64,000 bases of DNA from an uncultured archaeon (GCA_964498245.1 CAZCGK010000001.1:36581-100580), one strand, 5' to 3'; shown: positions 1 to 60,459, counted from the first letter of the stretch. Program-made: numbers and translations. Notes: generated by a model from the sequence alone, not told the origin.

Positions 1-3000
1 AGGCTGTAGAAACACCTGTTACAAATTCTGCAACATCCCGTCCTGTCCAAGGCTGACCTTTATATTCCTCATCAAAGAAGGGAAGAGCCTCTATCTTTGG
101 GAATCCCAGCATACCCCATACTCCGATGAATACTGAGGTTATGGTAGCTATCATGGAAAGCCAAACAAACTTTTTCACCATGTCCAGACATCTTTCATAC
201 CAGTCCATTAAAGAATTCGCTATATCCAGTGTTTCGTAAAGGGTTTTTCTTATTTCCTTTACGGATGATGTTACTATGTCATACATGCTTTCATATTCTT
301 GAATGGTTGTTATTGGCGGAAGTTGTGCTATTAGTTCTCTCGTGAGGGTTTTTCCCGTTTTTCCATCACGGTATGAAATGAAGAAGGACACGGAATTGTT
401 AATGTAAATGAAACGGTTGTTGGGTGGGTGGACAGAGCATTTTGATTCCTTTGGAACAAACATTGTACAGTTAAAGGTTATGCCTATGTTCTCATCACCT
501 TTCTTTTCACAGAATATATCTGCCAGATTATTTCCGATCTTTCCGTAAACCTCTTCCACACGGAAATTGTAAGGTGTGTTTTCTATATGTGCCTTCACAT
601 TGAGTCTGTTCCTTGTTTCACAGGTCTTAAAGGTAACCGGTGAGGCTGGAGAATCTATAACAAGCTTTATATCATTTTCCTTAATGCATGTTCCATACGG
701 GTCAAGTGTTGGGTCATAATTACAGAATTCCCCGGCAGGACAACCACAATCTATACAGCAGTTTTCGCTGTTTTCACCAAACTCGGTTTCACATCCATAT
801 TCACCGCAATGGAAGATGGGTGTGAGGGTTATGGCTGGAAGTTTTGCAGAAAGTTCCATGGTCCTGGTTCTGCTTCCATCTGGGAAGCTTATAGTGAAGT
901 TCAGGTGGTTATCATCGAATATTATGCCTGAGGATTCGCAATCCGGTTGCTCTGGTACGAGTACTGTACAGTTGAATAATCCGCTACCTGGGTGCTTCTC
1001 CTTGCAGGTTATTGCCGTTCCCGTTTCCCCACCAAGCTGATATGAGTAAAAATCAAGATGCAATCCTGTGGGTGGATTATGTATTTTTGCAAGTATGCTG
1101 ATTTCATGTTCTTTAAGACAATCCTCAAGTTCAACAGGGTTTACGGATTCTATAGAAAGTTTTATTCCGTCGATTGGTCTGCATTCCCCTATACTGTCAC
1201 AGTATTCATCATCAGAATAGCACCCTGCATCCTGACAGCATGTTTCCGGTGTTTCTCCAGAATCTATTTTACCATCTCCGCATAGTTTGGATGGAATGGT
1301 TATTGGATAAAATCCCTCTGAAACAGAAAGTGTCTTTGTTTTCTTCACTGCTCCATCACTGTAAGTTATCTGGAATATGAGTGTGTTTGGTTCAAATTTA
1401 TAATTGAGGTCCGGGCTGTAATTTGTTATGGAGAAGGGGATTGAACAGTTGTATTCGAAATTTTCTGTGGGCTCTGAACATATGGGTGTTCCTGGAGAGA
1501 CCTCACCATTTGTAAGATTCAGCTGGGCGCTGGCGCTTATAAGTACGGTATCAGTTGGTGGATTAAATATCTTTGCAGTAACGTTTATCATGTCTCCGGG
1601 TTGATAATCCTTTAGATAGGATGTTAGATAAATTATACCGAGAGAAATGGCATCTTCGGATTCGCATTCGTGCGTTCCTATATCGCAGTACAATCCTTCC
1701 CCACAGACACAATCATAATTCCATACAATAGAGGAGGAAGGTTGTGAGAGTTCTTTTGTTTCCTGATTCGGACCGTTAAAATAGGTTATTGTTAGTGTTA
1801 TATCCCTTATTTCAGAAGTTTTGCTACCCTTACCGCAACTTACCGGGGGTGAAAGCATGACAGGACATTCATAGGTAGAGGGAGAGCTCTTTGAACATGT
1901 AGAGAGGTATTGGGTATCATCTATTGAAAATGTTGCCTCTGCTGTATCTGATAGTGTGGCGGGAGCATTATTGATTTTCATTGGTATTCTGATCTCGGTC
2001 TGTGAAAGGCAGTTGTCAATCTGAACGGTTACAGGAGGCACTTCTAAGTTCATATCTGCAAGAGCCCTGCATGTGCCTGTGCTTGGTGTGTCTGGACTGG
2101 CATCACAGTATAATCCTTCTTCACAACCACAGTCATAACAGCAGTTTGCGGATGTTTCTCCCTTTGAAAGCTCACATTCACCGTTTCCACATGTGTAAAA
2201 TGGATTAAGGTTAAGTACCACAGGTGATATTATTTTGTCTGAATATTCTGGGAAGAGAAAGTAATAATCTTTGTTTATTGTGTCTATGGTATTTGATTCT
2301 GTAATTGCTGAGGTTGGTTGTGGTGGTGAGGATTCGAGTTCGCTTTGGGAACCACCGATGGCGTATATTTTATCGGCGTTTAAGAGCACAACTTTTTCCA
2401 GCCAGTTAAAGGGTATCATTCCAAAGTTTTCTATATACATTATTATTGGCTGAATATATTCTTCTGCTTTGGAATAAAGATTTACAGAATCAATTTCATC
2501 TTCGGATGTTATGAATATATTATAATCCCTTCTTTCTATTCTTTCCAGGATCCCGGTCCAACTTGAGGTTTCATATGGTCCTTCTAGTTTTACCAATATC
2601 ATGAGATTTGCTACTTCTGGGTACCTTTCTGCGCCTTCTCTCTGAGAGATATCATCCCACGAGTATTCAACATCTGCAAAGGTGTCGTATTCTTCAGGTT
2701 CTAACTGAGAGCACGTAACAGGGTCCAGAACCTTACATTTGTAGATATATATTTTCTTTATGGTATGGGAGAGGCTTGCACTGTTTATTGTAACCCTTAT
2801 TTTTATCTTTGACCAGGAAATGTCACTTGGGTCTCTTACAACCATGACTGCTGTATTGATCATATCCTTAAAGCTGTATTCTATGCTTGCCTGAATTTCA
2901 TCATTGTATATCACTCTAAAAGTGGTTGCTGAAACTATACTCAAATTTAAGAGCATGCAGGAAACCATTACTGCAGTGATCTGTAGGCAAAGCATCCTTG

Positions 3001-3007
3001 CATTCAT
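1..3007 (-). CDS. Giant secreted cysteine-rich repeat protein, partial (C-terminus beyond the window start). Last gene of the prepilin-like operon; putative pilus-associated adhesin.
   Basis: Uninterrupted minus-strand reading frame across the whole interval, read by hand. It is missing from the ORF track because it runs off the window. The N-terminus is MNARMLCLQITAVMVSCMLL, a signal peptide. The body has repeated modules such as CGNGECELSKGETSANCCYDCGCEEGLYCD and CGDGKIDSGETPETCCQDAGCYSDDEYCD. A TM-like stretch lies near position 1. The start ATG (3007-3005) overlaps the upstream TGA stop (3006-3004) as ATGA. Confidence 0.6.
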   Translation of the reverse strand, partial: MNARMLCLQITAVMVSCMLLNLSIVSATTFRVIYNDEIQASIEYSFKDMINTAVMVVRDPSDISWSKIKIRVTINSASLSHTIKKIYIYKCKVLDPVTCSQLEPEEYDTFADVEYSWDDISQREGAERYPEVANLMILVKLEGPYETSSWTGILERIERRDYNIFITSEDEIDSVNLYSKAEEYIQPIIMYIENFGMIPFNWLEKVVLLNADKIYAIGGSQSELESSPPQPTSAITESNTIDTINKDYYFLFPEYSDKIISPVVLNLNPFYTCGNGECELSKGETSANCCYDCGCEEGLYCDASPDTPSTGTCRALADMNLEVPPVTVQIDNCLSQTEIRIPMKINNAPATLSDTAEATFSIDDTQYLSTCSKSSPSTYECPVMLSPPVSCGKGSKTSEIRDITLTITYFNGPNQETKELSQPSSSIVWNYDCVCGEGLYCDIGTHECESEDAISLGIIYLTSYLKDYQPGDMINVTAKIFNPPTDTVLISASAQLNLTNGEVSPGTPICSEPTENFEYNCSIPFSITNYSPDLNYKFEPNTLIFQITYSDGAVKKTKTLSVSEGFYPITIPSKLCGDGKIDSGETPETCCQDAGCYSDDEYCDSIGECRPIDGIKLSIESVNPVELEDCLKEHEISILAKIHNPPTGLHLDFYSYQLGGETGTAITCKEKHPGSGLFNCTVLVPEQPDCESSGIIFDDNHLNFTISFPDGSRTRTMELSAKLPAITLTPIFHCGEYGCETEFGENSENCCIDCGCPAGEFCNYDPTLDPYGTCIKENDIKLVIDSPASPVTFKTCETRNRLNVKAHIENTPYNFRVEEVYGKIGNNLADIFCEKKGDENIGITFNCTMFVPKESKCSVHPPNNRFIYINNSVSFFISYRDGKTGKTLTRELIAQLPPITTIQEYESMYDIVTSSVKEIRKTLYETLDIANSLMDWYERCLDMVKKFVWLSMIATITSVFIGVWGMLGFPKIEALPFFDEEYKGQPWTGRDVAEFVTGVSTA

Positions 3008-4863
3008 TCACTAATCACCTCATCATAAGTTCTTGTACATCCTTCATAGTTGAGATAATCAATGGGTTTTTCAGATACAGGCCCGAGGTTACAGAGCATG
3101 AATAGATTGTTCAATTTCATCATTTCTCCAACCCTTTCTTCCGATTTTTCTATTTCCTTGAAATATTCACCATAGGGCAGATATATGTACAGATCTCCTC
3201 CATCCATATCTTCTGTTATTGTTAAAGGTGTTATGAGTCCACCAGATGCTTTCAGATTATCTACAAGAGTTATATAGACAATGTAATTGCCTACCGGTAT
3301 TCGCGTTATTCGAGCTATGTTTTTATTGAATATTCTGTGATAGATTTTACCTTCATTTACATTGAGGAAATCCATATAAACTATTTCGTTGGTATGTTTA
3401 TCATTCAAAGTATAAACTTCATAAGCAGGTATGGTATAGGTTTGTGAAATAGTGTTGTTGGTGACAAGAGCCTCGAAAAAGTGGAGGTTTATCACAGGTG
3501 TTCTTTTCAAAACTACCTTCATTCCAGCAAGTCTGTTCGATCCCGTGAGGTTGAAATAACGTGCAAAGCCCCTTTTGTAGATTTCGAGAGATCCTATTCC
3601 ACAAGGTGCTTGAGCAAAAACTTTTCCAGAAGAATCTGTTTCACCAAGGCTGCAACCCATAAAGCTCACCAAAGCTTCTCTTACTGGTCTGTTCTCAGTA
3701 TCGACTACGGTTATATCAGCTATGCAGTGGCTCGCTGAGCATAACTCTGAGTGTAATGATTGTTGTAGTGTGATTTGTCCTGTAGAAAGGTCGGGTGGTG
3801 TGTTATTGATTATATAGACTTGTGTTGCAAAATTCAAACTCTTTCTCGATTCTGGATCCTGTACGGTAACTATAGCAGGATAGCTCAGAGAGTATCTTAC
3901 GTATATTGGTTTGGATTGACACTTTCCGATAAATGGTATGGGTTCTGCGTATGCAACGATGGGCTCTGGTGTGAATGAAAATGTAAAGGAATCGAGTTCG
4001 AAATCATCCGGAAGGAAGAACTTTACATCAAGGTCTGAATATGTTTTTCCATTGTATCTCAGTAAAGAAAATTTGGGCGATGCGCTTATGTTCATCGTAT
4101 GAAGCGGGACTTTTTCAGGCATATAGATATTTTCTAAAGTTCTTCTTATAGCATCTTCAACCTTGGGTTTTATATCACTCCATGTTCTTATATAGAAATC
4201 ACCGCATTCTGTAAGAAAGACAAAAAACGGTATCTCGTTTACACCATCATCAATTGGGGAAACCACCATCGTTGTAAGAGTTGAGTATTCAAGAAAGTGT
4301 CTTTTAAGAGAGTCTTTCAGAAAACTCTCGGAAAACTCTATCATCTCTTTAAGCTTCATTGGAACAGAAACTGTGTAAGGTTGAGGAACCGGATAATCTT
4401 TTGCAACTGTTGGCATGTTCACAACTGCTTCAACCCTGTCATCGAGAATATTTACAGCGATAACCTGGGGGTCTCCTAGTGAAGTGAGTATGCCCTCAGC
4501 AGAAGCCGTACTGAAGAATTTATCTTTATGTTCTCTCAAATATTCTTGCAAGGCGTTCTTTATGTTTTCTCTTATATCCGGTATAACAACCCTTCCCTCA
4601 TATTGCCAGTAAGGAACATCCTTTCCGTTAAGCCTTACAGAGCCTAAAGGAAAAGCCTCAGGATTTGCATATCCACCGTGCGCGGTTATATTATTTAACA
4701 CATCGGATAAGGACGCCTTCAAAAAACCTTCAACTGTTGATTTTGCAACTCTTACATCAGGGGACTCTACCGGGAAAAAGGTATTCCACTGGGTGGCTAT
4801 TACAATCATTATCACGATAAAAAGAGCTATTATTATCACAACTTCTGTTTGAGCTTTTTTCAT
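3004..4863 (-). CDS. Large prepilin-like protein (619 aa) with a class III / type IV pilin-type signal peptide
   Basis: N-terminus MKKAQTEVVIIIALFIVIMIVIATQ: a short basic leader, then KA|Q, then a roughly 20-residue hydrophobic helix, as in archaeal type IV pilin N-terminal domains. The stop overlaps the next gene's start. Confidence 0.55.
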   Translation of the reverse strand: MKKAQTEVVIIIALFIVIMIVIATQWNTFFPVESPDVRVAKSTVEGFLKASLSDVLNNITAHGGYANPEAFPLGSVRLNGKDVPYWQYEGRVVIPDIRENIKNALQEYLREHKDKFFSTASAEGILTSLGDPQVIAVNILDDRVEAVVNMPTVAKDYPVPQPYTVSVPMKLKEMIEFSESFLKDSLKRHFLEYSTLTTMVVSPIDDGVNEIPFFVFLTECGDFYIRTWSDIKPKVEDAIRRTLENIYMPEKVPLHTMNISASPKFSLLRYNGKTYSDLDVKFFLPDDFELDSFTFSFTPEPIVAYAEPIPFIGKCQSKPIYVRYSLSYPAIVTVQDPESRKSLNFATQVYIINNTPPDLSTGQITLQQSLHSELCSASHCIADITVVDTENRPVREALVSFMGCSLGETDSSGKVFAQAPCGIGSLEIYKRGFARYFNLTGSNRLAGMKVVLKRTPVINLHFFEALVTNNTISQTYTIPAYEVYTLNDKHTNEIVYMDFLNVNEGKIYHRIFNKNIARITRIPVGNYIVYITLVDNLKASGGLITPLTITEDMDGGDLYIYLPYGEYFKEIEKSEERVGEMMKLNNLFMLCNLGPVSEKPIDYLNYEGCTRTYDEVISE

Positions 4864-4898
4864 AATATTTTTATTTTGTTTTGGAGGTTTTTATATTA

Positions 4899-5417
4899 TT
4901 ATTTCTGAGTTGCAAAGGATACGATGAGCTTTGCTTCTAAAAGATATTCTGTTCCATGATATAATTTTTCAATTATTGTGTTGGCAACCCTTTTGGGGAT
5001 TCTCCTCTCCCTTTCAAGAGAAGGATCTCCAAACTCCAGTTTTAATGCTCCCTTTCCATGAAGAGGTATCCATTCTGAGGATGCAGACCTTACGGTAAAG
5101 AAATATCTCATGTTCTCGTTTATCAATCCCATATATTTTTTCAGGGTTTCGTTTGCAAGTTCCAAGCATGGTTTTGGAGAACCCCTGCACACATAGCTTG
5201 GTGTTAGGAATGCACAGGTTATGAGGTCTGAAACGGTCTCGCACCTGTCTCCGTATCCTGTGTTTGTTTTGAGCACGGAGAGAAGCAGGTTATTTACATA
5301 CAAATCGCTGTATTCTTCTCTTATTACGGTAGAGGAAAGCGAGAGAAGAATTGTTATCAGGCCTAGGAATATCAAAAGCACAACAATCAGCAATATCATG
5401 CTTGTTTGTGCCCTCAT
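4899..5417 (-). CDS. Prepilin-like protein (172 aa)
   Basis: N-terminus MRAQTSMILLIVVLLIFLGLITILLSL (RA|Q followed by a hydrophobic segment). Sits in the same operon. Confidence 0.5.
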   Translation of the reverse strand: MRAQTSMILLIVVLLIFLGLITILLSLSSTVIREEYSDLYVNNLLLSVLKTNTGYGDRCETVSDLITCAFLTPSYVCRGSPKPCLELANETLKKYMGLINENMRYFFTVRSASSEWIPLHGKGALKLEFGDPSLERERRIPKRVANTIIEKLYHGTEYLLEAKLIVSFATQK

Positions 5418-5926
5418 TCATATACACCTACTGTAAGGAGTGCAAGATCGTATTTTTGGGTTATATGTCTGTAAACGTTGACAGGAAAAGTGTAAATATA
5501 TCTTGTAATTCTTTCTTTTTCCAGAGATTTCGATTTACAAAAGCTCCAGTAATTGCAATCAGGGTATACAAACTCTGTGCATTCGTTTTCTTCCTCTCCA
5601 TCAGCAATTTTCACTTCAAAATACCAGTTGCTTCCAAAAATTTTGTTAAGCTCTCTGCATATATCCTTTCCGGAGCTTTCAAGTCTTTTCATGCCCGTGA
5701 GTAATGAATCATCAAATGCAAACCTTTCTTTCACGAAGAATGGAGAAACCATAAGATGCTTTGCAAGGAACAGTGCTCTATCGTCCATTGATCTTGTGCG
5801 TTCAGTGCCTATATGCATAACATTCCACCATCCTAAAAAAAGGACAAGCAGAGCTATTACAAATATCACAAAAAAGGTCATGAATATGTATTCCATTATT
5901 CCTGCTTGTGATTTCATTTCATTCAC
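5414..5926 (-). CDS. Prepilin-like / N-terminally anchored small protein (170 aa)
   Basis: N-terminus MNEMKSQAGIMEYIFMTFFVIFVIALLVLFLGWW. It overlaps both neighbours by 4-8 nt. Confidence 0.45.
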   Translation of the reverse strand: MNEMKSQAGIMEYIFMTFFVIFVIALLVLFLGWWNVMHIGTERTRSMDDRALFLAKHLMVSPFFVKERFAFDDSLLTGMKRLESSGKDICRELNKIFGSNWYFEVKIADGEEENECTEFVYPDCNYWSFCKSKSLEKERITRYIYTFPVNVYRHITQKYDLALLTVGVYE

Positions 5927-7067
5927 ACCCGTTCTTTATAAGGTCTGCATATATGGATTTTGATTCCTCTAGGGCAAGTTTTAACATTTCCATCTCCCCA
6001 TATTTTGTATAGTCATTTCCCGTATGCTTCATAACATTTCCAAGTTTTGAGTACAGCTGATTATAAAGAGGATAACATCTGCAGTAGATGCTCTCGGGAT
6101 TGTGCTGAGGATCGCATCTTTTTTGATATTCTGATCTGAGAATGTATGATTTTTCTCTTACAAATTCAGCAGCGATGGCAAGATTTTTGAGCAGAAGTGT
6201 GTTTTTGAAATGGTAAAGTTTTTCGCCTGAAGATTTTCCTAATATGTCTTCTTCATTTCCTCCTATAATGAGTGCTAGAATGTCTACAGGGTCTTTGTAT
6301 ACAAAAATATCCTGAGATCTTGGTGTATATATATAGCCCATTTCAGGAGAGACGGGTTTTACGCATATTCCCTGTGAAATCCTCGCCTGTCTACAGGATT
6401 GAGATACAGTTACTAGGATATAGTTTTTTTCCAGTGCGGTATTACATGGTGAAGCTTTTGCTCTGTAGAAATCCAAGACTTTGAGAAATGCTTCCCTTTC
6501 GCAGGGTTTTCCGCCACATATGTTTTCCAGAAGGGTATTACCGTCGCAGAATCCAAAGGTGATTTTCACATGGAAATTTTGAGTATCGGGAAATATTCTT
6601 GTCAGGTTTTTCATAATATTCCATGTTTTATCTTCTATATCCTCTGGAATAAAAATCACATGCATCTCTGGAAGTGCTGTTATGAAACGGAATCTCCACC
6701 AACCATAATCGATTTCCTCAGCATCAATTATTGATTCTTTTCTGTCCTCAAAATGAGGAAATATGGGAAGAGATACTGGAGAAATCTCTCCGAAATCGCA
6801 TTTAATAGCAGGAGGCTCGGGTTCATTCCAAGCAATTTCGCAGGAGGAGAAATCAAACATTTTTGTGTCATTGAAAACAACAGGATTACCTGAAAAATAA
6901 ACGCTTTCTGAGGTTTTCTTGAGGTTGTTTAGCACGGTTAAGCTTTGTTTGGTTTTTCCAAATGAAGAATAATCTGAAGCGTATTGAATGAGAAAGAATA
7001 AAATAAAACCTGAAAATATAATACCCAATACCAGCTGAAAAGCCTTATATACTGTTATCATTTTCAA
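5919..7067 (-). CDS. Prepilin-like protein (382 aa)
   Basis: N-terminus MKMITVYKAFQLVLGIIFSGFILFFLIQ (KA|FQ followed by a hydrophobic helix). It has a 4-nt overlap with the upstream gene. Confidence 0.5.
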   Translation of the reverse strand: MKMITVYKAFQLVLGIIFSGFILFFLIQYASDYSSFGKTKQSLTVLNNLKKTSESVYFSGNPVVFNDTKMFDFSSCEIAWNEPEPPAIKCDFGEISPVSLPIFPHFEDRKESIIDAEEIDYGWWRFRFITALPEMHVIFIPEDIEDKTWNIMKNLTRIFPDTQNFHVKITFGFCDGNTLLENICGGKPCEREAFLKVLDFYRAKASPCNTALEKNYILVTVSQSCRQARISQGICVKPVSPEMGYIYTPRSQDIFVYKDPVDILALIIGGNEEDILGKSSGEKLYHFKNTLLLKNLAIAAEFVREKSYILRSEYQKRCDPQHNPESIYCRCYPLYNQLYSKLGNVMKHTGNDYTKYGEMEMLKLALEESKSIYADLIKNGCE

Positions 7068-7588
7068 TCACTTATCTTTTCCACCGAAACCCATTTTCCG
7101 ATATTTTCAAAATACAGTTCCGAACCAGGACCTGCACAGAAATTTTCTTCAGGTAGTATTCTGAGATAGTTTACATGATACCCGCTTTCACCTCCGCAAA
7201 ACGTTATCCACAAGGTGTAATCATTTTCCTTTATCAGGTTTTCATATACAGGGTCGGGTATCCAGTCTCCTGCAAGATTAGGTCTGGGATCTGAGCTGTT
7301 TACAAAACATATTTTTGTATTTTCTGGTATGTTCAGTGTATACACTTCACTAAAGCCCTTTGATTTTGGATAGACTTGATTCTCAACAAGATTTTTTATC
7401 TCTTTTACAGTTTTCTGAATCTGGGCATTTTCACCGGTGCAGAATATATTCATGATGACATTAAAACCGAAAAATATAACAAAGGATATAACTACTATCG
7501 CAAAAATAAGTGCAAATACCATACCTACACTCATGGCTTTCATTTTCTCACTAAATTCTTTTTGATTTTGAAGAATTAAATTATTCAA
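7064..7588 (-). CDS. Prepilin-like protein (174 aa by the ORF track; the real start is probably an internal Met near 7540)
   Basis: The internal sequence MKAMSVGMVFALIFAIVVISFVIFFGF looks like the true class III signal peptide. Confidence 0.45.
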   Translation of the reverse strand: MNNLILQNQKEFSEKMKAMSVGMVFALIFAIVVISFVIFFGFNVIMNIFCTGENAQIQKTVKEIKNLVENQVYPKSKGFSEVYTLNIPENTKICFVNSSDPRPNLAGDWIPDPVYENLIKENDYTLWITFCGGESGYHVNYLRILPEENFCAGPGSELYFENIGKWVSVEKISD

Positions 7589-8186
7589 CTATTTCTATTG
7601 CAAACGAAGCAGAACCATAGAGGCTGGAGGAAGGTGTGGAATATCCTATGGAAGGAGAGGTTGCATGACAATCATTTGCATCTCTATAATTTGTGCATAC
7701 AGCTGCTCTAAAGGAATATATTCCAGGAGGTGATGTAGGGCTTGGTTTGATTATTATATCCACTTTATCTCTTCCATTCGGTTCTATATCAATACTGGGA
7801 GGGGAAAGTGTTATCCATGATTTTACTTCGTCTTTTAATCTCGAAAGTTGAGAAGGATCGAGTCCTCCGCCTATTGCTTCGAGATAAACATTAACGTAAT
7901 ATGTATTGGATTTGTCTGTATCTTCATTTCTTATGCCTAAAGTATATGCACCTGTTTCTCCTTTTTTCCATTTTGTTACAGAAGGTGCAGCAATTCCAAC
8001 CCTTTTGTTCTGTGATGCAAGTTCTTGAAGGAGTTTCTGCATAGCGATATCGGTTGTTTTGTGGGTTATGGTGGAAAGGGGATCGAAAATACCTTGAAGC
8101 CATGTGAGGGATAAGCTCAACAAGATCACTGCAAACACAACAGCAACTATAAAACCCAAACTTAACTGAAACGCTCCCTTTTTCAT
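7581..8186 (-). CDS. Prepilin (type IV pilin-like, 201 aa)
   Basis: N-terminus MKKGAFQLSLGFIVAVVFAVILLSLSL: the canonical KKG|A prepilin peptidase motif followed by a hydrophobic helix. Confidence 0.6.
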   Translation of the reverse strand: MKKGAFQLSLGFIVAVVFAVILLSLSLTWLQGIFDPLSTITHKTTDIAMQKLLQELASQNKRVGIAAPSVTKWKKGETGAYTLGIRNEDTDKSNTYYVNVYLEAIGGGLDPSQLSRLKDEVKSWITLSPPSIDIEPNGRDKVDIIIKPSPTSPPGIYSFRAAVCTNYRDANDCHATSPSIGYSTPSSSLYGSASFAIEIVE

Positions 8187-8232
8187 GAATAATAATTTGA
8201 TAGCAGATACTTATATATTTTAATCAAAATGG

Positions 8233-8700
8233 CTACATTATTCCAACATTTCTGTAAACACGATAATATTCTCTTGTTACCGTTTGATATCCACCGCTTC
8301 CAGATTTTATTTCCAAAGAAACAGTAACGGGCGCATCTTCCGGTGGAGTGTTGTTCCAGTTATCGCAATTTACAGAAAAATCTATATCTGTAACATATTC
8401 AAAGGATCCGTAGGTGTCTGCAAGAAAGGTTTTCAATTCTTTAAGTCTTGTTTTGAACTCTTCACAGTTTTCTGCAGAAGTGAGGGTCTGATTTGTTACA
8501 TCTTTTAGGTTGTTAAGGAGATAAAGATCATTATTGCTTAAAGTTTCTGAAGCGTCCATTGTGGAGTACGCTAAAAGCAAAATCTGCACTGCTGAAATCA
8601 TCCCCGCCAAAAAAATCATCGTCACTATAAACATCTGTGCTTTCCTCATAATCTGTTTTTGTTCCTCAAGAAATAAAAAACCTCTTCGTATTTTAATCAA
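8233..8700 (-). CDS. Prepilin-like protein; the likely start is at internal Met (~8649), giving MRKAQMFIVTMIFLAGMISAVQILLL
   Basis: KA|Q motif and hydrophobic helix. It is the first gene of the minus-strand operon and is divergent from pus10. Confidence 0.5.
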   Translation of the reverse strand: MIKIRRGFLFLEEQKQIMRKAQMFIVTMIFLAGMISAVQILLLAYSTMDASETLSNNDLYLLNNLKDVTNQTLTSAENCEEFKTRLKELKTFLADTYGSFEYVTDIDFSVNCDNWNNTPPEDAPVTVSLEIKSGSGGYQTVTREYYRVYRNVGIM

Positions 8701-8702
8701 GT

Positions 8703-9896
8703 ATGAGTTTCGAAAGGTATGTTAACGAGGAGGTTATTCAGATAGCAAGAGAGATAATTGCACATAGAGAAAGCATATGCGATCACTGTCTGGGAAGACA
8801 ATTCGCCCAGATAGGACACGGTTTTACAAATGCAAAAAGGGGAAGGATTATAAGAAAAATTACAGGCCTGAAGAAAAAACCCGGTTCATGCCCGGTTTGC
8901 AGGGATTTTTTCAAGAACCTTGAAAGGCTTTCAGAGAAAATTGCAGACGCGCTGAAGGGTTTCGAATTCAAAACGTTTGTTGTGGGAACGAAACTTGATG
9001 AGGATTTGATAAAAAGGGAGGAAGCATTATGGGAGGATGTGGGTATAAAATACTGTGAATCCATAAAATCGGAAATAAACAGGGAACTCGGTAAGCTTAT
9101 AGAGAAAAAAACTGGAAAAAAGGCTCACAGGGAAAATCCCGAAATCACCATAACCTTGAACACGGAAGGTATGGATTTCAAGATTGAGCCTGCGTCGCTC
9201 TATATCTATGGTAGGTACAAAAAGCTTGTAAGAGGTATCCCGCAGACCAAATGGGATAAATATCCAGAAACTGTTGAAGATATCATAGCAGAACCCTTTA
9301 TGAAAGAGACTGAAGGAAAAGCACATTCTTTTCATGGAATGGGAAGGGAGGATATAGATGCTAGATGTCTTGATTGGAGACCGTTTGTGCTGGAAATAAA
9401 GAAACCGAAAAAGAGAAATATAAATTTGAGAAAAATGGAAAGAGAGGTTAACAAGTCAAAGAAAGTTAGAATCAGTGATTTGAGGTTCTCTAATAAAGAA
9501 GAAGTTGTTAAGCTTAAGGATGCAAGACCTGATAAAACCTATCGTGTTATTGTAGAGTTTGAAAAATCTTTAAATAAGGAAGATTTAGAAAAATTAAAAT
9601 CTCTTGTGGGTGAAATATACCAGAGAACGCCTACAAGGGTTTTGCACAGGAGAGCAGATGTCCTCAGAAAGAGAAAGGTGAAGGAGATAAGCTTCAGAAT
9701 GATAAACAATAAAAAACTTGAACTCGAAATAAAAGGTGAAGCAGGACTTTACATAAAAGAGCTTGTAACAGGGGATAATGGCAGAACAAGGCCATCGCTT
9801 GCAGAAATTATAGGAAAAAACCCGAAGGTATCGGAGCTGGATGTTATAAAGATACATTGGAAAGAAGGGGAGCGAAAAAATGGTAAGGATGAGTAA
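8703..9896 (+). CDS. pus10: tRNA pseudouridine(54/55) synthase Pus10
   Basis: N-terminal zinc ribbon (CDHC...CPVC), THUMP-like middle region, and a catalytic region with GREDIDARCLDWRPFVLEI. The 397 aa length is typical of archaeal Pus10. Confidence 0.7.
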   Translation: MSFERYVNEEVIQIAREIIAHRESICDHCLGRQFAQIGHGFTNAKRGRIIRKITGLKKKPGSCPVCRDFFKNLERLSEKIADALKGFEFKTFVVGTKLDEDLIKREEALWEDVGIKYCESIKSEINRELGKLIEKKTGKKAHRENPEITITLNTEGMDFKIEPASLYIYGRYKKLVRGIPQTKWDKYPETVEDIIAEPFMKETEGKAHSFHGMGREDIDARCLDWRPFVLEIKKPKKRNINLRKMEREVNKSKKVRISDLRFSNKEEVVKLKDARPDKTYRVIVEFEKSLNKEDLEKLKSLVGEIYQRTPTRVLHRRADVLRKRKVKEISFRMINNKKLELEIKGEAGLYIKELVTGDNGRTRPSLAEIIGKNPKVSELDVIKIHWKEGERKNGKDE

Positions 9897-10167
9897 AGGG
9901 TTTAGGTCTGGAACAAGAAATAAACTCTCGAAAAGCAAGAGAGAAAAGTTTACTGTGGAGAGGTATATAAGGAAATTTGAACCGAACCAAAGAGTTGTTA
10001 TACATCTTGATCCTTCCTCACACAAAGGAATGCCTCATCCGAGATTTAAGGGCCTGATAGGGGTTGTAAAGGAAAGGAGGGGAAGGGCGTACATTGTAAG
10101 TGTAAAAACCGGTAGAAAGGAAAAAATGATTATAGCCAGACCAGAACATTTAAAACCTGCAGGATAA
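9880..10167 (+). CDS. rpl21e: 50S ribosomal protein L21e
   Basis: MVRMSKGFRSGTRNKLSK...RVVIHLDPSSHKGMPHPRFKGLIG is characteristic of L21e. It sits in the conserved L21e-RpoF-DUF655 cluster. Confidence 0.85.
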   Translation: MVRMSKGFRSGTRNKLSKSKREKFTVERYIRKFEPNQRVVIHLDPSSHKGMPHPRFKGLIGVVKERRGRAYIVSVKTGRKEKMIIARPEHLKPAG

Positions 10168-19669: not shown

Positions 19670-20554
19670 CTAATGTATAAACCTCAGGTCCAGGCTTTTC
19701 GCATAGTCCAGAACTTCAGCAAATTCCTCCTCGCTCAAGCATCTGGAAATCTCGGGAAAGTTTTTTGCCTTATATTCTGGTCTGTACTGAGACATGATGT
19801 TAACTATAACCTGTTTTCCGAAGTTTTCGGAAATAAAATCAAGAACAGGTTTTGAACAGCACTGTATGTGCCCGGGCAAAACTAAGTGCCTTATCACAAG
19901 GTCCGAATCGTGAAAAGCAAGAATGTGATTTCTCTTCACAACTTCCATATAATTCTTAACCCCAGAAAGCCTCCATGCGCATTTGTTGTTTCCGTATTTG
20001 AAATCACTGAGATAGAGGTCTATTGTGCCTTTCAGCAAAGATAGAGATTTTTCTGACATATAGAAATTGGAATTCCAGATAACGGGTATATCTGATTTCA
20101 CAAATTTTAGGGTTTTCAGAATAAAGGGAAGATAGGGTGTTGGTTCACCTCCGACAAAGTTTACATTTTTGCATCCACAGGAATCTATATACAAGGCAAG
20201 CTCTCTTTCCGATACCTCTTTTGGTCTTTCGAATCTCTGCGATATGGTCCAGTTCTGGCAGAAAACACAGGCAAATGTGCATGACCAGAAGAAAACCGTG
20301 AAGCTCGGTACAAGGAAATATTCCTCACCCCAGTGGGAAAACATGGAAGAAACAAGCATTTTGTTTGGAACCTTACACCAGCCGGTTTTGCCCTGAGTTC
20401 TGTCAACACCACATTTTCTCTCGCACAGACAGCATTTTTTCAAAACATTTGAAGCTTCTTTTATTTTGCTTTCCAGGTTTTCCAGATTTTTGAACTTTGG
20501 TTTCGATTTTCCGGAAACTACTGCTTCGTAATGCTCTAAGGGTTTTCTCATCAT
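19670..20554 (-). CDS. Radical SAM protein, PflX-like (COG1313, PFL-activating-enzyme-related)
   Basis: CX3CX2C motif CTFACVFCQNW, further Cys clusters, 294 aa. Confidence 0.65.
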   Translation of the reverse strand: MMRKPLEHYEAVVSGKSKPKFKNLENLESKIKEASNVLKKCCLCERKCGVDRTQGKTGWCKVPNKMLVSSMFSHWGEEYFLVPSFTVFFWSCTFACVFCQNWTISQRFERPKEVSERELALYIDSCGCKNVNFVGGEPTPYLPFILKTLKFVKSDIPVIWNSNFYMSEKSLSLLKGTIDLYLSDFKYGNNKCAWRLSGVKNYMEVVKRNHILAFHDSDLVIRHLVLPGHIQCCSKPVLDFISENFGKQVIVNIMSQYRPEYKAKNFPEISRCLSEEEFAEVLDYAKSLDLRFIH

Positions 20555-21426
20555 CGTTTTATTTCATTTTTTATAAATTCCATTATATTTCTTGCTACAT
20601 TGATATTGGTTGCCTTTTCTATTTCCTGAATACCGGGGTTTATATTCACTTCTATAACATGGATTCCATTTTTGCTTTCTATCATATCCACAGCACATAT
20701 TCTGGACTTTATGGCTTCTGCACATTTAAAACATATCTCCTCCATTTCTGATGTTAGCTTGTATGCAACTCCCCTTCCTCCAGCTTTTATATTTGCTCTC
20801 TTTTCCTCTGGAGATGCTATTCTTTTGAAGGAACCTATTATCTCATCCCCAGCAACTATTCCTCTTATATCCTCTCCAGGATTGGGAACGAATTTCTCTA
20901 TCAGAACTTCCTGTTTCAGGGTGTTCATTGTTTCTATTAAAGATTTTGCGGCTTCCTTGCTTTCTATCACCATCACACCCTTTCCACCAAAACCTGCAAG
21001 AAGCTTTATCATTAAGGGAAGTTTCTGTTTTTCTATTATTTTCATTGCAGATTCCTTTGAACCTGTTAGGTAGGTTTCCGGAACCTTTATTCCGTGTTTT
21101 ACAAGCTGTTCCAAGGTAAGAAACTTGTTGTGTGCGATATGAATGGTTTCAGCTGGATAGGGTTTCCTAACGCCAAGATCATCGAGAAATCTTATCACAG
21201 GATAGCCTATGATTGCACGTTTGGAGTCAATTCTTGGAAGGACATAATCGAATTTGGACATATCCGTTTTTTCGTAAAAAGCACCAAGACCGTTGTCTAC
21301 CCTTAACTGAATGCTAACGAGGGGTATATACTTTGCATTGAATCCTGCATTTTTTGCTTCTGCTATCAATCGCTTTGTGGTGTAGCCTATAAATTTCTGT
21401 GTTGGGCCGAGAATTGCAAGTTTCAT
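20551..21426 (-). CDS. RimK-family ATP-grasp ligase (alpha-L-glutamate ligase-like)
   Basis: ATP-grasp motifs LMIKLLAGFGGKGV, QEVLIEKFV and IRGIVAGDEIIGSFKR, 291 aa. Confidence 0.7.
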   Translation of the reverse strand: MKLAILGPTQKFIGYTTKRLIAEAKNAGFNAKYIPLVSIQLRVDNGLGAFYEKTDMSKFDYVLPRIDSKRAIIGYPVIRFLDDLGVRKPYPAETIHIAHNKFLTLEQLVKHGIKVPETYLTGSKESAMKIIEKQKLPLMIKLLAGFGGKGVMVIESKEAAKSLIETMNTLKQEVLIEKFVPNPGEDIRGIVAGDEIIGSFKRIASPEEKRANIKAGGRGVAYKLTSEMEEICFKCAEAIKSRICAVDMIESKNGIHVIEVNINPGIQEIEKATNINVARNIMEFIKNEIKR

Positions 21427-21440
21427 AACAAATATTGGTG

Positions 21441-21725
21441 TTATTTAATAAAACTCTTTTCTTTCACTATTTCTTCTGGCTTCGCTTCCAGCATGGCCTT
21501 TATTTCTTCAAGCTCTATCTCTATTTCCTTTGAAAGCCTTGCTCTATCCCATCGGGTCAGGGTTCTTTCCTCAAGAATTCTGAGCTTTTCTTCTGTTCTG
21601 TCCAGTTTTTCGAGAAGAATGTGCCTGACGGGTTTTTCCTTTTTGAGGGTTTTTTCTCTGAGCCTGTCCCATTTTTTTCTTAATTTTCTTAATTTTCTCT
21701 GCCATCCAAAAAACAGGGAAAACAT
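21441..21725 (-). CDS. Small basic coiled-coil hypothetical protein (94 aa)
   Basis: ORF sits between RuBisCO and the ATP-grasp gene on the same strand. It is Lys/Arg/Glu-rich. Confidence 0.35.
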   Translation of the reverse strand: MFSLFFGWQRKLRKLRKKWDRLREKTLKKEKPVRHILLEKLDRTEEKLRILEERTLTRWDRARLSKEIEIELEEIKAMLEAKPEEIVKEKSFIK

Positions 21726-22951
21726 TATTTCACTCTTCTGCTCCAGTGAATGAGAGCTGTGTGAAGTTCTGGATGCGTTCTGGCGTGTGTTTTGAGTGGT
21801 ATACCTTTCATCACGGCATCCAGGGCCTGTCTTATTGCCCTGGCTCCTGCTTCAGGCCCTTGTGGATGACCCCACAGGCCTCCACCGCAGGTAAAGATTA
21901 TATCCTTTCCTAAAAGCTTTACAAGAGAAGGTATCAGTCCTGGATGCAGACCTCCTGAAGCTACTGGAAAAACCCTCTTCAAACCATGCCATTTTGCTCT
22001 CAGGAATGAATCTATCTCCTGAACCTCTCTTTTACTTCCTTCCATTTTTCCAACTGCTGTTCCTGTATGCAAGGCTGTCACACCAGCAAGTCTTGCGAAT
22101 TTGGCTATAACCTTCATGGAAATTCCGTGTTCAGGGTCTCTTGTAAATGCAGCGTGCATTGCCCTGTGAGCATGAATGGCCAAGCCTAATTTTTGATTTC
22201 TCATGAACTGAAGAGCGGACCAGCCAGAGGTTATGATATCTATCATTATACATTTCCCTCCCTGCGCCTTTATCATCTCTGCTCTTTCAAGCATGACATC
22301 TGCAGGGGCTGTTATATTGCATGCATATATCACTGTCCTGCCTTCCTCGGATTTTATCCTGTCAACAACATCGAGCATTCTCACAACTCTTTCTTCGAAT
22401 TTGCTAAAAGGCATTGAGGTCAGGTTTTCATCGTCTTTTGTATAATCTATGCCTGCTGAATATACTCTGTAGGCAAGCTCTGCCTGTTCTTTGGGTGTTA
22501 GACCCAGTTTAGGCTTGAATATGGTTCCTGCTATGGGTCTGTTTCTGATTTTCATGATTCTTCGCAGATCTTCCATGCCTATTTCAGGTCCGGGAAAGCT
22601 TTTTGCAAGCTTTTTCGGAATGTGAACATCTTCGAGCCTTAAGCTCTCGACAAGCTTCATACCGAAAATGTTTCCTGCTACAGAGCTCAGAATCTGTGAA
22701 ATATTGCCTGGTTCGAAAAGTTCTGCAGGATATGCTATTTTTATTCTTCTTCCCTTTATCTCAAAAACCCTTGCGGATATTCTTTCTATTCTCTTCTTCC
22801 AGGTTTTAAGTTCTGTCCAGGTTCCTGTTGAGCTTTCTAATGCAATGTTTTCAGCGACTTTTTTTATGGAAATGCCTTTGGCTGGTTTCACATAGAAATC
22901 GCAGATCAGATCGTTTTTGCTTGGTTTGTAACTTAGATCGAGATAGTGCAT
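21725..22951 (-). CDS. rbcL: Ribulose-1,5-bisphosphate carboxylase large subunit, form III (archaeal)
   Basis: ESSTGTWT, GTIFKPKLGL (catalytic Lys), IDYTKDDENL (carbamylated Lys) and GGLHPG motifs, 408 aa. Confidence 0.85.
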   Translation of the reverse strand: MHYLDLSYKPSKNDLICDFYVKPAKGISIKKVAENIALESSTGTWTELKTWKKRIERISARVFEIKGRRIKIAYPAELFEPGNISQILSSVAGNIFGMKLVESLRLEDVHIPKKLAKSFPGPEIGMEDLRRIMKIRNRPIAGTIFKPKLGLTPKEQAELAYRVYSAGIDYTKDDENLTSMPFSKFEERVVRMLDVVDRIKSEEGRTVIYACNITAPADVMLERAEMIKAQGGKCIMIDIITSGWSALQFMRNQKLGLAIHAHRAMHAAFTRDPEHGISMKVIAKFARLAGVTALHTGTAVGKMEGSKREVQEIDSFLRAKWHGLKRVFPVASGGLHPGLIPSLVKLLGKDIIFTCGGGLWGHPQGPEAGARAIRQALDAVMKGIPLKTHARTHPELHTALIHWSRRVK

Positions 22952-24386: not shown

Positions 24387-25055
24387 TCACTTTAGTGGAT
24401 TAAAAGTGTCCGATTGATATTTTTGTTCCACCCGATGCCTCTTTGTTTGATAAAGTGCTTTGTCCGCTGTTTTCAGAACCTCCGGGGTATACTCTTCAAA
24501 CACACCGACCCCCATGCTCAGGCTTATATTTTCAATATCTCTTAACACTTCTTCTGAATGTGGATATTTTTTCATTCTCCACAGTCTTTTGAGAGTCTTC
24601 TTCAGATTATCTTTTTCTCTTTCAACATATTCTGTTATCCTCTCCATTACATAGGGTATATTTTCTGGTTTTATGTCTTTGAGAAGCACGATCATTTCAT
24701 CACCACCATATCTTCCTGTGAAAGCCTCTGTGAAAAGCTTATCCTGACCTCGAGAGATTCTTGTGCTTCCTTTTAATGCTCTGGCTATTCTTTTCAGTAC
24801 ATGATCGCCTGCTTTATGACCGTAGGTATCATTGATTTTCTTGAAGTTGTCCACATCTATGAATAAAAGCGCATAATTACCCCTTTCCAAGCTCTTCAGT
24901 TCATTTTCAAGGGCTCTCCTGTTATTCAGGCCTGTAAGCGGGTCCTTGTATGCTAATTCTTCCAGCTCTTTCGCATATCTGGCAAGCTCTTTCGCATATT
25001 CACGAAGGTCCTCTGGCCCTAATACATCTATCTCGCTTTCTTTCAGTATCCTCAT
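24387..25055 (-). CDS. GGDEF-domain protein (putative diguanylate cyclase with a degenerate GGDEM signature) and an N-terminal coiled coil
   Basis: DPLTGLNNRRALE, FIDVDNFKKINDTYGHKAGD, RYGGDEM and LSMGVGV...ADKALYQTK match the GGDEF fold landmarks. Confidence 0.7.
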   Translation of the reverse strand: MRILKESEIDVLGPEDLREYAKELARYAKELEELAYKDPLTGLNNRRALENELKSLERGNYALLFIDVDNFKKINDTYGHKAGDHVLKRIARALKGSTRISRGQDKLFTEAFTGRYGGDEMIVLLKDIKPENIPYVMERITEYVEREKDNLKKTLKRLWRMKKYPHSEEVLRDIENISLSMGVGVFEEYTPEVLKTADKALYQTKRHRVEQKYQSDTFNPLK

Positions 25056-42833: not shown

Positions 42834-43286
42834 ATGATAGAAGAGGAGTACGAAATAATTCCAACTTCTCCGTTAAGAAGGCTTGAGAAGAGGATAAGCA
42901 AACTTGAGGAATCCAGTCAATCTTCCCAGATAAATAAACTTATAGAGCAGATTATTGAACTTATTAAATCCAATCAGAGGGTAATAGATGATGTGGTTAA
43001 ATCAGACAGTGAGCTTAGAAATGAGATCTCAAAGCTCCCGGGAAAAATAGATGCGCTTGTTTCAATGATGAAAGAGTTCATAGAGATGTTGAAGGCTTCC
43101 GCGGCAGAGGAAACCACAACAGAGACATCCAAAGAGATTGTTGAACCCATGATTAAAAAAATTGATGAGCTTATAGAACAGAACAGACAGAATCTGGAGG
43201 CAAGTAAAGCGATACTTACAAATTTAAGTGCAATAGATAATAGATTGAAAAGAATATATATGCAGTATTCATCCACGGTGAGGTAA
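42834..43286 (+). CDS. Coiled-coil protein; first gene of the pilus locus (150 aa)
   Basis: Heptad-rich, no TM. Co-oriented and tightly spaced with the pilin genes. Confidence 0.4.
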   Translation: MIEEEYEIIPTSPLRRLEKRISKLEESSQSSQINKLIEQIIELIKSNQRVIDDVVKSDSELRNEISKLPGKIDALVSMMKEFIEMLKASAAEETTTETSKEIVEPMIKKIDELIEQNRQNLEASKAILTNLSAIDNRLKRIYMQYSSTVR

Positions 43287-43329: not shown

Positions 43330-43785
43330 ATGAAAAAGGGAATAACGCCCATCATTTCGGTAATAGTTCTTTTGCTTATAACAATTGCTCTTGCAGGAGC
43401 TGCATGGACATTTTTAAATCAGTATCTTTCAGGTACCACTGGCAAGAATCTTCAGATGATAGATTCTTACTGTCAAGGTGGCACAACAGCAAAGATTGTG
43501 CTCAAGAATGTAGGGACCGAAGCGATAAACATAGGGAACTGTAATGTAGGAATGTCCGGAACAGAGACATCATGTGGAGACGTTATAGTTGTAAGAACAG
43601 ATGGAGGAGGGCTTAATGGTTCTGTCTTAACCCCAAACACAGGTGGAAATACCATCCCTTCTCAGGGGCTTGCAACGTTCACTGATAATAACTGTACGGT
43701 GACCGGAACACCAAAAACATGCATTTACAGATTTGTTGTAGGAACTCTTGGTGCAGTACAAGCAATAGTAACGTGCTCTGGCTGA
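43330..43785 (+). CDS. Type IV pilin-like protein (class III signal peptide)
   Basis: MKKG|ITPIISVIVLLLITIALAGAAW: a prepilin peptidase site plus a hydrophobic N-terminal helix. A GGAGG RBS lies upstream. Confidence 0.7.
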   Translation: MKKGITPIISVIVLLLITIALAGAAWTFLNQYLSGTTGKNLQMIDSYCQGGTTAKIVLKNVGTEAINIGNCNVGMSGTETSCGDVIVVRTDGGGLNGSVLTPNTGGNTIPSQGLATFTDNNCTVTGTPKTCIYRFVVGTLGAVQAIVTCSG

Positions 43786-43804
43786 GTAAACAGCTTTTGA
43801 AAGT

Positions 43805-44419
43805 ATGAAGAAAGCCCAAACCCAAACAATATCCGTAGTTTTAATGACAGGGATAATTATTAGCCTTGCTGGTGCGGCATATCTTTGGGGAAAACCACTA
43901 ATAGAAAAGAGAATGACTATATCAGACTTTACAAATGCGCTGGATTTTGTTCTCGATCTGGATAAAAAAATAGTGGATGTTGTGAATTCAGGTTCTGGTT
44001 CCTTTGAGATAGATATACCTAAAGGCACTTTGAGAGTTGTTCCGTATGGTGCGAACGACCCAGATAATAATTCAATAATATATGAAATTCTGGTTAGCCA
44101 GCCAATTGCATATAATGCAAGTACAATACTCATTAAGACCGAAAGTGATGATCCTGTAGGCATGTATGGAGAGGCTGAACCGAGAATTATAACCCTCAGT
44201 ACACTCTCTACTGGAGGAAATCTGTATCAATTGAGATTTAAAATACACTATCGAGAGCTCATCACAAAAACAAAGGGTTACAGGATAGCTTTAGATTCGG
44301 TAAGCAAGAGTGGAAACAAAAGGATTACAGTTACGTTCGACAAAAAAGAGATACAGCCTCTTCAGGCAAGCAATAATGGAGATTTAATACTCAATTATGT
44401 AAAAATTACCGTAATTTAA
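43805..44419 (+). CDS. Type IV pilin-like protein (class III signal peptide)
   Basis: MKKA|QTQTISVVLMTGIIISLAGAAYLWG. Confidence 0.7.
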   Translation: MKKAQTQTISVVLMTGIIISLAGAAYLWGKPLIEKRMTISDFTNALDFVLDLDKKIVDVVNSGSGSFEIDIPKGTLRVVPYGANDPDNNSIIYEILVSQPIAYNASTILIKTESDDPVGMYGEAEPRIITLSTLSTGGNLYQLRFKIHYRELITKTKGYRIALDSVSKSGNKRITVTFDKKEIQPLQASNNGDLILNYVKITVI

Positions 44420-44450
44420 AAATTTATCACCAAACACACAAATCTAATTT

Positions 44451-44897
44451 ATGAGAAAACTAAAAGCCGCTTCATTTATATTTGAACAGGTTATGCTTTT
44501 TTTAATGGGTGTTGTGATATTTACTGCGTGTTTTTTCGTTTTTCAGAGTTACCAATCGTATTTTGAAGAAATAAGTGTAAGAAACCAGCTTAACGAAATA
44601 AAGGATGCTGTGATCTCTTATATAATCAAGCTTGCTGAAGGCGGGAAGGATACCATCTCATACATAAAAATAAAATTCTGCAGACCGCCGGGCAGTAACT
44701 GTTTTCCTTATAAAGTGGGAAATGAAGATTATCTCATATCACTTTCCGATGATGGTGTAAATGTTACTGCTATTTCATCTGGTATCACTGTACATTCTGA
44801 TGTATATTTACTCAATATTTCTCTCGATGGTACTGTTTACAGTTCAGCAGGAGATTTTGTGATTTATAAGAGTGGAAACAAAATTATAATAAAATAG
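44451..44897 (+). CDS. Pilin-like / pseudopilin-like protein with bacterial-type Glu+5
   Basis: MRKLKA|ASFIFEQVMLFLMGVVIFTACFFVF: cleavage after Ala would place Glu at +5. Confidence 0.45.
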   Translation: MRKLKAASFIFEQVMLFLMGVVIFTACFFVFQSYQSYFEEISVRNQLNEIKDAVISYIIKLAEGGKDTISYIKIKFCRPPGSNCFPYKVGNEDYLISLSDDGVNVTAISSGITVHSDVYLLNISLDGTVYSSAGDFVIYKSGNKIIIK

Positions 44898-46663: not shown

Positions 46664-46667
46664 GTGC

Positions 46668-47546: not shown

Positions 47547-47550
47547 ATCA

Positions 47551-56943: not shown

Positions 56944-57021
56944 AACGATTAAAAAATTCTCACTTTTGTTTGAGTGTTATAATAAAAATGTTTCGTTAAT
57001 ATATAAACTTTAGACAAAGAA

Positions 57022-57717: not shown

Positions 57718-57765
57718 ATTTATAGTTATATGTGAAGAAATAAATATTCTTGCGAGTATCGTGAA

Positions 57766-58503: not shown

Positions 58504-58577
58504 TGATAAATAGTGACAATATCGTATTTAAATGCTTTTCTATACTGCAATATAGATTATAGAATGATGATAAAGAA

Positions 58578-59960: not shown

Positions 59961-59976
59961 GGCACTCTACCTGGTT

Positions 59977-60438: not shown

Positions 60439-60459
60439 TTACAGCCTTGATGGCTTGGT

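Follow-up and report, generated by a model that had tools for sequence, protein, structure and literature searches.

A conserved block of pilin-like genes and a giant cysteine-rich surface protein in Aenigmatarchaeota: a candidate minor-pilin and tip-adhesin module

The Epd pilus of Methanococcus maripaludis is encoded in several separate pieces: its pilin genes are spread over four or more sites, the ATPase and two membrane components occupy a locus of their own, and minor pilins share an operon with an adhesin-like protein and further genes that are essential, while the substrates of EppA in this organism carry a leader of 5-13 amino acids (aa) ending in Gly, a Gln at position +1 and a conserved Glu (PMC3875500). 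One ATPase and two platform genes likewise define archaeal type IV filament (TFF) system 1, which is reported from methanogens and DPANN archaea (bioRxiv 10.64898/2026.04.22.720090). Archaeal type IV pilus loci have been reported to encode at least five minor pilins each together with large Cys-rich secreted proteins, an arrangement for which an analogy to bacterial minor pilins and PilY1 was proposed, and the predicted regulators linked to such pili include TFIIB homologues (Makarova et al. 2016, PMC4858521). Here we describe a block of eight genes, G1 to G8, at the start of a 64,000-nucleotide (nt) stretch of DNA from an uncultured archaeon (GCA_964498245.1, CAZCGK010000001.1:36581-100580; referred to as the window, with positions counted from its first letter), which we interpret with moderate confidence as an Aenigmatarchaeota-specific minor-pilin and tip-adhesin module of an Epd-like (archaeal TFF system 1) type IV pilus.

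G1 to G8 follow one another on the minus strand, head to tail, from position 8649 past position 1 of the window, the arrangement given in a preliminary description of this DNA. A divergent Pus10 gene (8703-9896) stands upstream, and on an identical contig that extends beyond the window (L001) the next gene after G8 is a convergent TBP (TATA-binding protein) gene. G8, which leaves the window as had been noted, has a full length of 1283 aa in L001. In each of G1 to G7 the only hydrophobic segment is N-terminal and the Cys count is even (2, 2, 4, 12, 4, 4 and 8 in order); their mature parts span about 130 to 615 aa, which corrects an earlier estimate of 150 to about 600. The absence from the block of an ATPase or platform gene, already remarked upon, is borne out by Pfam and NCBIfam scans, and there is no peptidase gene within it either. 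The gene content of the window is archaeal, with Pus10, L21e, Rpb4, a thermosome subunit, TFIIB and a form III-like RuBisCO; a viral or mobile-element origin of the block was rejected in view of its window-like GC content and of housekeeping flanks in all genomes. The features of the block are as follows.

8233..8649, minus: G1, class III-type pilin-like protein, 138 aa (MRKA|QMFIVT...), 2 Cys
7581..8186, minus: G2, pilin-like protein, 201 aa, with the most conserved N-terminal helix (MKKG|AFQLSLGFIVAVVFAVILLSL)
7064..7534, minus: G3, N-terminally anchored protein, 156 aa, leaderless (MSVGMVFALIF...), 4 Cys
5919..7061, minus: G4, N-terminally anchored Cys-rich protein, 380 aa (MITVYKAFQLVLG...), 12 Cys
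5414..5917, minus: G5, class III-type pilin-like protein, about 167 aa (MKS|QAGIMEY...)
4899..5417, minus: G6, class III-type pilin-like protein, 172 aa (MRA|QTSMILL...), 4 Cys
3004..4863, minus: G7, large modular pilin-like protein, 619 aa (MKKA|QTEVVII...), partner of G8
1..3007, minus: G8, residues 1-1002 of the 1283-aa giant Cys-rich surface protein, the remainder lying outside the window (L001:11857-15708)
2927..3007, minus: G8 Sec-type signal peptide, residues 1-27 (...SIVSA|TTF)
2069..2191, minus: G8 Cys-knot module 1, residues 273-313 (CGNGECELSKGETSANCCYDCGC...C...C)
1664..1711, minus: G8 short Cys module 2, residues 433-448 (CVCGEGLYCD...C)
1181..1282, minus: G8 Cys-knot module 3, residues 576-609
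686..808, minus: G8 Cys-knot module 4, residues 734-774
98..169, minus: G8 internal hydrophobic helix, residues 947-970, between conserved body and variable tail

Two junctions, G5/G6 (5414-5417) and G7/G8 (3004-3007), are genuine ATGA overlaps. The other overlaps of 4 and 8 nt that had been listed, at G3/G4, G4/G5 and G2/G3, appear only if translation begins at TTG or GTG codons, which find no support in orthologues; the homologous ATG starts leave gaps of 1-2 nt at G3/G4 and G4/G5 and of about 46 nt at G2/G3. Ahead of both G2 and G7 there is an AT-rich gap (35-46 nt) that contains TATA-like boxes, and because of these the block, first proposed as a single operon, may comprise two or three transcripts.

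A FlaFind-like rule, which requires [KR][GAS] among the first 16 residues and, after it, a hydrophobic stretch free of charged residues, was applied to the 82 open reading frames (ORFs) of at least 100 aa in the window and was passed by ten: G1 to G7, two pilins beside the ATPase described below, and one spurious antisense ORF. This clustering of class III-like N-termini is far from chance. In alignments of orthologues, a short basic leader ending in Gly or Ala and followed by about 20 hydrophobic residues is conserved in G1, G2, G5, G6 and G7. G1 orthologues read K-[AG]-Q-M-F (K in 13 of 14, A or G in 14 of 14, Q in 14 of 14), with M-F and then T invariant. The G2 family has [KR]-[GA]-A-[IF]-[QE]-[LM]-S-L-G-F-I-V, with an almost invariant helix, Ala at +1 and Gln or Glu at +3. 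In G5 the site is K-[GAS]-Q-x-x-[ILM]-M-E-Y, where K or R is followed by G (16), A (3) or S (2), Q is found in 21 of 21 sequences, and a Glu at +6, also present in 21 of 21, precedes Y. G6 has [KR]-[AG]-Q-[TS]-[ST]-M (K 15, R 5; A 11, G 11; Q 22 of 22), and G7 has [KR]-[GA]-Q-x-E, with both the Q and a Glu at +3 present in all 25. The helix Glu is absent from G1 and G6. These five families are mutually dissimilar in sequence, and the shared [KR][GA]-Q/A site therefore reflects functional constraint rather than common ancestry of the whole proteins.

The claim that all seven smaller proteins are prepilin-like thus holds for five of them and fails, on the same alignments, for G3 and G4. G3 orthologues begin M-[NDS]-V-G-M-V-F, with no leader and no basic-G/A site, and those of G4 have M, I, V, L or A at -1 (Ala in the window) and no conserved class III site; five of the 12 Cys residues of G4 are invariant (C172, C206, C223, C233 and C379). 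BLAST comparisons among G1 to G7, and of these with the three ATPase-side pilins, revealed no paralogy beyond a weak signal between G2 and G3. An hhalign comparison of the G3 and G2 families gave a probability of 60% (E 8.5e-5) over the helix and about 40 aa, and placed the start of G3 at the fifth residue past the predicted G2 cleavage site (L8), which weakly hints that G3 may be a leaderless, degenerate pilin-like paralogue.

We note that public gene calls start G1 at an inner Met (133 aa; L001 6230-6631) and G5 at MEYIF (160 aa; L001 8968-9450), and that sizes vary with the caller for G5 (160, 167 or 170 aa; window 5414-5926) and G3 (156 or 159 aa). As a practical warning, these automatic calls trim the class III leaders of G1 and G5, so that both would escape pilin predictors applied to deposited proteins.

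A search with the G7 family, restricted to one genome per species, yielded 22 loci, for which all records that name a lineage are Aenigmatarchaeota, the remainder being labelled 'archaeon' or 'uncultured archaeon'. When G1 to G8 were compared by BLAST with the ORFs of all loci, the order G1-G8 was found to be kept in about 18 of them, with 25-50% identity. The genes are thus syntenic among relatives rather than scattered (scattering would have spoken against the preliminary description), and the conserved order supports the view that they form a functional unit. In the complete chromosome L007, G6, G7 and G8 are the only members found together, and in three distant lineages (L028, L029 and L030) just adjacent G7-like and G8-like genes occur. 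G7 and G8 are adjacent in every locus, the distant ones included; because this pair alone remains in the distant lineages, it is the invariant, translationally coupled core of the block. The lengths of G8 orthologues range across the loci from 1223 to 2253 aa.

An exhaustive profile search with the G7 family recovered 228 cluster representatives at E<=1e-30, and the named members that were checked were all Aenigmatarchaeota; the 3482 weak profile matches were rejected as a measure of family size, as they probably reflect a common transthyretin/CarboxypepD_reg-like domain. Named homologues of the block proteins are nearly all from Candidatus Aenigmatarchaeota (DPANN), with a few short-contig records labelled bacterial or 'Nanoarchaeota'. 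None of the eight proteins has a name in public sources, and the eight families, none of them described before, are confined to Aenigmatarchaeota and close relatives.

Several further features of the related loci were observed. Several short-contig homologues of G8 and G2 (P0215, P0228 and P0032) bear NCBI labels that assign them to metagenome-assembled genomes of Spirochaetes, Deltaproteobacteria or Thermotogae; their near-identity to Aenigmatarchaeota genes suggests that these labels are probably binning errors. In one relative (L003) an opposite-strand Exo_endo_phos gene (4601-5410) lies between G3 and G4, and a TnpB-like (Cas12f1-like_TNB) gene with two small ORFs (7833-9923) separates G6 from G7, insertions being tolerated there at gaps that correspond to the TATA-like boxes of the window. 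Two divergent genomes share a gene pair downstream of G8 (L004 18636-21839 and L030 14559-17821), consisting of a same-strand gene of about 480-494 aa and a convergent one, of about 611-617 aa, whose HYDIN/ASH immunoglobulin (Ig)-like matches are faint. This pair, which is absent downstream of G8 in the genome of the window, may represent further parts of the system.

G8 had been characterised from its visible part as a giant secreted protein of Cys-rich modules, and its full sequence agrees: it has 62 Cys residues, an even number, and a Sec-type rather than class III signal (..VSA|T), in which A27 is invariant and T28 nearly so and which is preceded by a hydrophobic core in all orthologues. 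The signal peptide is followed by a domain of about 240 aa, four Cys-rich modules, a helical stretch, the hydrophobic helix at 947-970 and a conserved motif (C..QH..D.G.C...E.SCF..C). The modules follow the pattern CG.G.C...CC.DC.C, each with a beta-rich segment after it, and most Cys residues of module 1 are invariant, with the rest nearly invariant. This body, which extends to about residue 1075, has a constant length in orthologues (1049-1080 aa), with nearly all Cys invariant, and beyond it lies a hypervariable tail of 160-1200 aa. Tail domains include Big_5, Big_7, LNR, CARDB and LRR in L004, PKD and Big_7 in L025, and PKD with a pretoxin-HINT domain (PF07591, 4.7e-14) in the homologue P0237; the Ig-, PKD- and LRR-type modules are of adhesion type, and G8 looks like an adhesin, the role first suggested for this protein.

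The position of the internal helix of G8 is conserved and its sequence is not, and it exceeds the hydropathy threshold in most orthologues; basic residues lie on its N-terminal side and an acidic, G/S/T-rich linker follows it. Although the tail comes after this hydrophobic helix, it is predicted to be extracellular because the tails carry extracellular-type modules, and on the same grounds we rejected a reading in which G8 is a plain type I membrane protein whose tail faces the cytoplasm. The helix is at odds with any simple transmembrane topology, and it may form a hairpin, lie buried or serve as a membrane-active segment.

Structure prediction from family alignments yielded confident models for two of the proteins. 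The AlphaFold2 model of G2 (predicted local distance difference test score, pLDDT, 90) has a helix at 4-33, a lower-confidence loop, a second helix at 46-58 and an Ig-like sandwich, and a conserved Cys pair is found at the C-terminus of G2. That of G7 (pLDDT 87) has helices at 2-29 and 35-61 separated by a break, after which come an alpha/beta domain that ends near residue 370, a transthyretin-like domain and additional sandwiches; vWA domains are present in some relatives of G7. The predicted structure of G2 gave no specific match to solved pilins. Nothing meaningful emerged from profile searches of the PDB with the G2, G3, G4, G7 and G8 families, and the weak matches seen in these searches, to HA2, a fimbrial protein and designed proteins, were not significant.

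The only assembly genes in the window are those at 44909-48468 to which the preliminary description had drawn attention, and they stand 36 kb from the block, in trans, behind a set of canonical pilin genes.

43330..44897, plus: three pilin genes with canonical class III signals (MKKG|ITPIISV, MKKA|QTQTISV, MRKLKA|ASFIF)
44909-46663, plus: T2SSE/PilB-type ATPase (Pfam T2SSE 1.7e-32)
46668-47546 and 47551-48468, plus: two T2SSF/TadC platform genes (Pfam T2SSF 2.4e-15 and 2.2e-19)

Directly upstream of this locus are a TFIIB paralogue (41628-42596, plus) and a gene for a 150-aa coiled-coil protein (42834-43286, plus). The KKAQT motif of one ATPase-side pilin is shared with G7 and G6. The window thus holds the one ATPase and two platform genes of TFF system 1, in trans, and the absence of motor genes from the block is normal for such systems, since the M. 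maripaludis loci are likewise separate. The earlier statement that the combination fits no described archaeal pilus family must be revised, as its layout matches the Methanococcus Epd pilus: both have several pilin-like genes with short leaders ending in Gly or Ala, Gln at +1 (here Ala in G2) and a conserved Glu (here in G5 and G7), both encode pilins together with further genes and an adhesin-like protein, and both have a separate ATPase and two-platform locus (PMC3875500; bioRxiv 10.64898/2026.04.22.720090). The differences are nevertheless considerable. In sequence the block proteins resemble neither Epd proteins nor DUF361 (no Pfam match), the Glu is at +3 (G7) or +6 (G5) instead of the +5 of DUF361 (QxSxE), no EppA gene is included, two members (G3 and G4) are leaderless, the proteins are much larger (138-619 aa), and they are accompanied by a 1283-aa Cys-rich partner with a hypervariable tail.

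Resemblance extends to the bacterial type IVa pilus set FimU-PilVWXE with PilY1 and to the type II secretion proteins GspH-K, in which about five pilin-like proteins, one of them oversized, are encoded away from the motor genes together with a large non-pilin, Sec-exported adhesin; the vWA modules of some G7 relatives are a further likeness. This is an analogy only, with no detectable homology, and G8 differs in its internal hydrophobic helix and in having no beta-propeller or other testable PilY1 signature. The kind of system, TFF minor pilins with a large adhesin, is known; new here are the G7-G8 core pair, the +3 and +6 positions of the Glu, the leaderless members, the internal hydrophobic helix of G8 and its design of constant body and variable tail.

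From what was observed, namely which genes the block holds, their synteny, their conserved motifs and domain make-up and their distance from the motor genes, we infer a course of cleavage, assembly, G7-G8 contact and adhesion that would run as follows. G1, G2, G5, G6 and G7 would be made with class III signals of the EppA-substrate type, with G or A after K/R and a mature Gln (Ala in G2), and would be cleaved by a prepilin peptidase encoded elsewhere. The ATPase and the pair of TadC proteins encoded at 44.9-48.5 kb would join their hydrophobic N-terminal helices into a minor-pilin/tip complex, or into a short filament with G2 as the main subunit, and G3 and G4 would be uncleaved, N-terminally anchored accessory proteins. 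G7, a modular pilin translationally coupled to G8 in a fixed ratio, would hold the Sec-exported G8 on this structure, and the disulfide-rich body of G8 would present the hypervariable tail, which may bind, and in some strains attack, partner or host cells; this arrangement would resemble that of bacterial minor pilins and PilY1.

Several lines of evidence argue for such a pilus module. The [KR][GA]-Q site is conserved in four dissimilar families, with [KR][GA]-A in G2 and an invariant helix Glu in G5 and G7; the seven consecutive genes account for all passes of the FlaFind-like rule apart from the ATPase-side pilins and one spurious ORF; and gene order is conserved in about 18 genomes. To these may be added the helix and Ig-like sandwich predicted for G2 with its C-terminal Cys pair and pLDDT of 90, the presence of an ATPase and two platform genes in the same window in a layout also seen in M. 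maripaludis, the ATGA overlap and universal adjacency of G7 and G8, and the vWA domains of G7 relatives, the Ig, PKD, LRR and LNR modules of G8 tails and the even, conserved Cys.

Other observations weigh on the opposite side. The class III signature is lacking in the G3 and G4 families, whose FlaFind-like matches are peculiar to the genome of the window. No Peptidase_A24 match was found in the scanned ORFs of the window, and no GxGDxK motif in the window or related loci. Pfam and NCBIfam scans of all eight proteins returned only noise and no pilin-family match, although this test of family membership is weak because the undoubted ATPase-side pilins have no Pfam match either; the profiles of G2, G7 and G8 had no significant match in the PDB. 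None of the related loci has a gene for an ATPase, platform protein or peptidase within 10 kb of the block. Both AlphaFold2 models have a break after the hydrophobic helix and no continuous alpha-1 helix. The internal hydrophobic helix of G8 is superfluous for a simple tip adhesin, and in four genomes G7 and G8 are present without neighbouring G1 to G5.

Many of these points are what one would expect of a membrane-anchored complex that forms no filament, in which uncleaved signal anchors tether seven ectodomains and G8 into a TFF-independent envelope or attachment plaque: G3 and G4 would need no class III site, the modelled succession of helix, break and globular part would be that of anchored ectodomains, neither homology to known pilins nor nearby motor genes would be called for in any genome, and G8 has a hydrophobic segment of its own. 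We nonetheless consider this unlikely. A plain signal anchor would give no reason for keeping [KR][GA]-Q and the helix Glu, and the invariance of both in unrelated families is left unexplained by simple anchoring, while the ATPase-side pilins bear the same style of motif.

More doubtful is a contact-dependent effector system akin to polymorphic toxins, with G8 as an effector carrying exchangeable cargo and G1 to G7 as a pseudopilus-like device for its export or presentation. Polymorphic toxins of the pretoxin-HINT class share with G8 a constant N-terminal body and an exchangeable C-terminal region, here about 1075 conserved residues followed by 160-1200 hypervariable ones, with a hydrophobic helix of conserved position at the boundary, and the pretoxin-HINT domain of P0237 is a hallmark of this class. 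That domain, however, is on record in just one of about 40 G8 homologues from the sequence search, ten of which were scanned directly, and most tails, which have neither a HINT or toxin domain nor an adjacent immunity gene, hold adhesion-type Ig, PKD or LRR modules. The tail of the window's own G8 has no recognisable toxin or HINT domain, and it is followed not by an immunity-like gene but by the TBP gene on the other strand. This explanation overlaps with the pilus module proposed above. A speculative and rather improbable picture is that G7, G8 and the pilin-like partners form a TFF-based host-contact organelle of DPANN Aenigmatarchaeota, in which the filament or pseudopilus would push out G8, the G8 helix, which has helical regions flanking it and extracellular-type domains on both sides, would enter the membrane of the partner, and the cargo of the tail, a pretoxin-HINT effector in at least one strain, would be presented to the host or delivered into it; if true, this would represent a TFF-dependent system of contact-dependent delivery in archaea.

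An S-layer-like envelope set, with G8 as major surface-layer protein and the small proteins as its anchors or assembly factors, appears highly improbable, for although archaeal type IV pilus loci often include S-layer-like proteins (PMC4858521) and G8 is a large, disulfide-rich secreted protein, S-layer proteins do not typically have a hypervariable tail with a HINT domain, the SlaB match reflects a common beta-sandwich, and other large Sec-signal surface proteins at 53179-63999, some of them C-terminally anchored, are better candidates. The genes at 53179-63999 (minus) form a second surface-protein cluster, with giants of 1254 aa and more than 1179 aa that have Big_7, CARDB, FlgD_ig and Big_13 matches; between them are four smaller genes without Pfam match, two of which encode a Sec signal and a C-terminal membrane anchor. 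This cluster is not pilin-like, and its products are possible S-layer or envelope proteins.

The Aenigmatarchaeota, a DPANN lineage without cultivated members, are presumed to live attached to other cells, and we know of no mechanism that has been described for this attachment. The conserved and hitherto unannotated block offers concrete candidates for an attachment apparatus, the G7 family alone having at least 228 metagenome cluster representatives. If our interpretation of the block as a pilus module is correct, it also extends into DPANN the Epd-type design of a separate pilin operon, +1 Gln signals and two platform proteins, and the giant putative adhesin, with its constant body and exchangeable tail, would be a plausible determinant of host range.

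The window contains other genes of interest. The gene at 24387-25055 (minus) encodes a 222-aa protein in which a GGDEF diguanylate cyclase domain is complete (Pfam 3e-32). Proteins of this class are rare among archaea, and possible cyclic di-GMP signalling in a DPANN genome, with this gene in the same window as the pilus genes, would merit attention. Two genes for RimK-like ATP-grasp proteins are present, one at 20551-21426 (minus) with an adjoining radical S-adenosylmethionine gene and the other at 48525-49445 (plus), directly downstream of the second TadC gene. A homologue of the RuBisCO large subunit is encoded at 21725-22951 (minus; Pfam 1.2e-84), which we take to be of the form III type common in DPANN nucleotide salvage.

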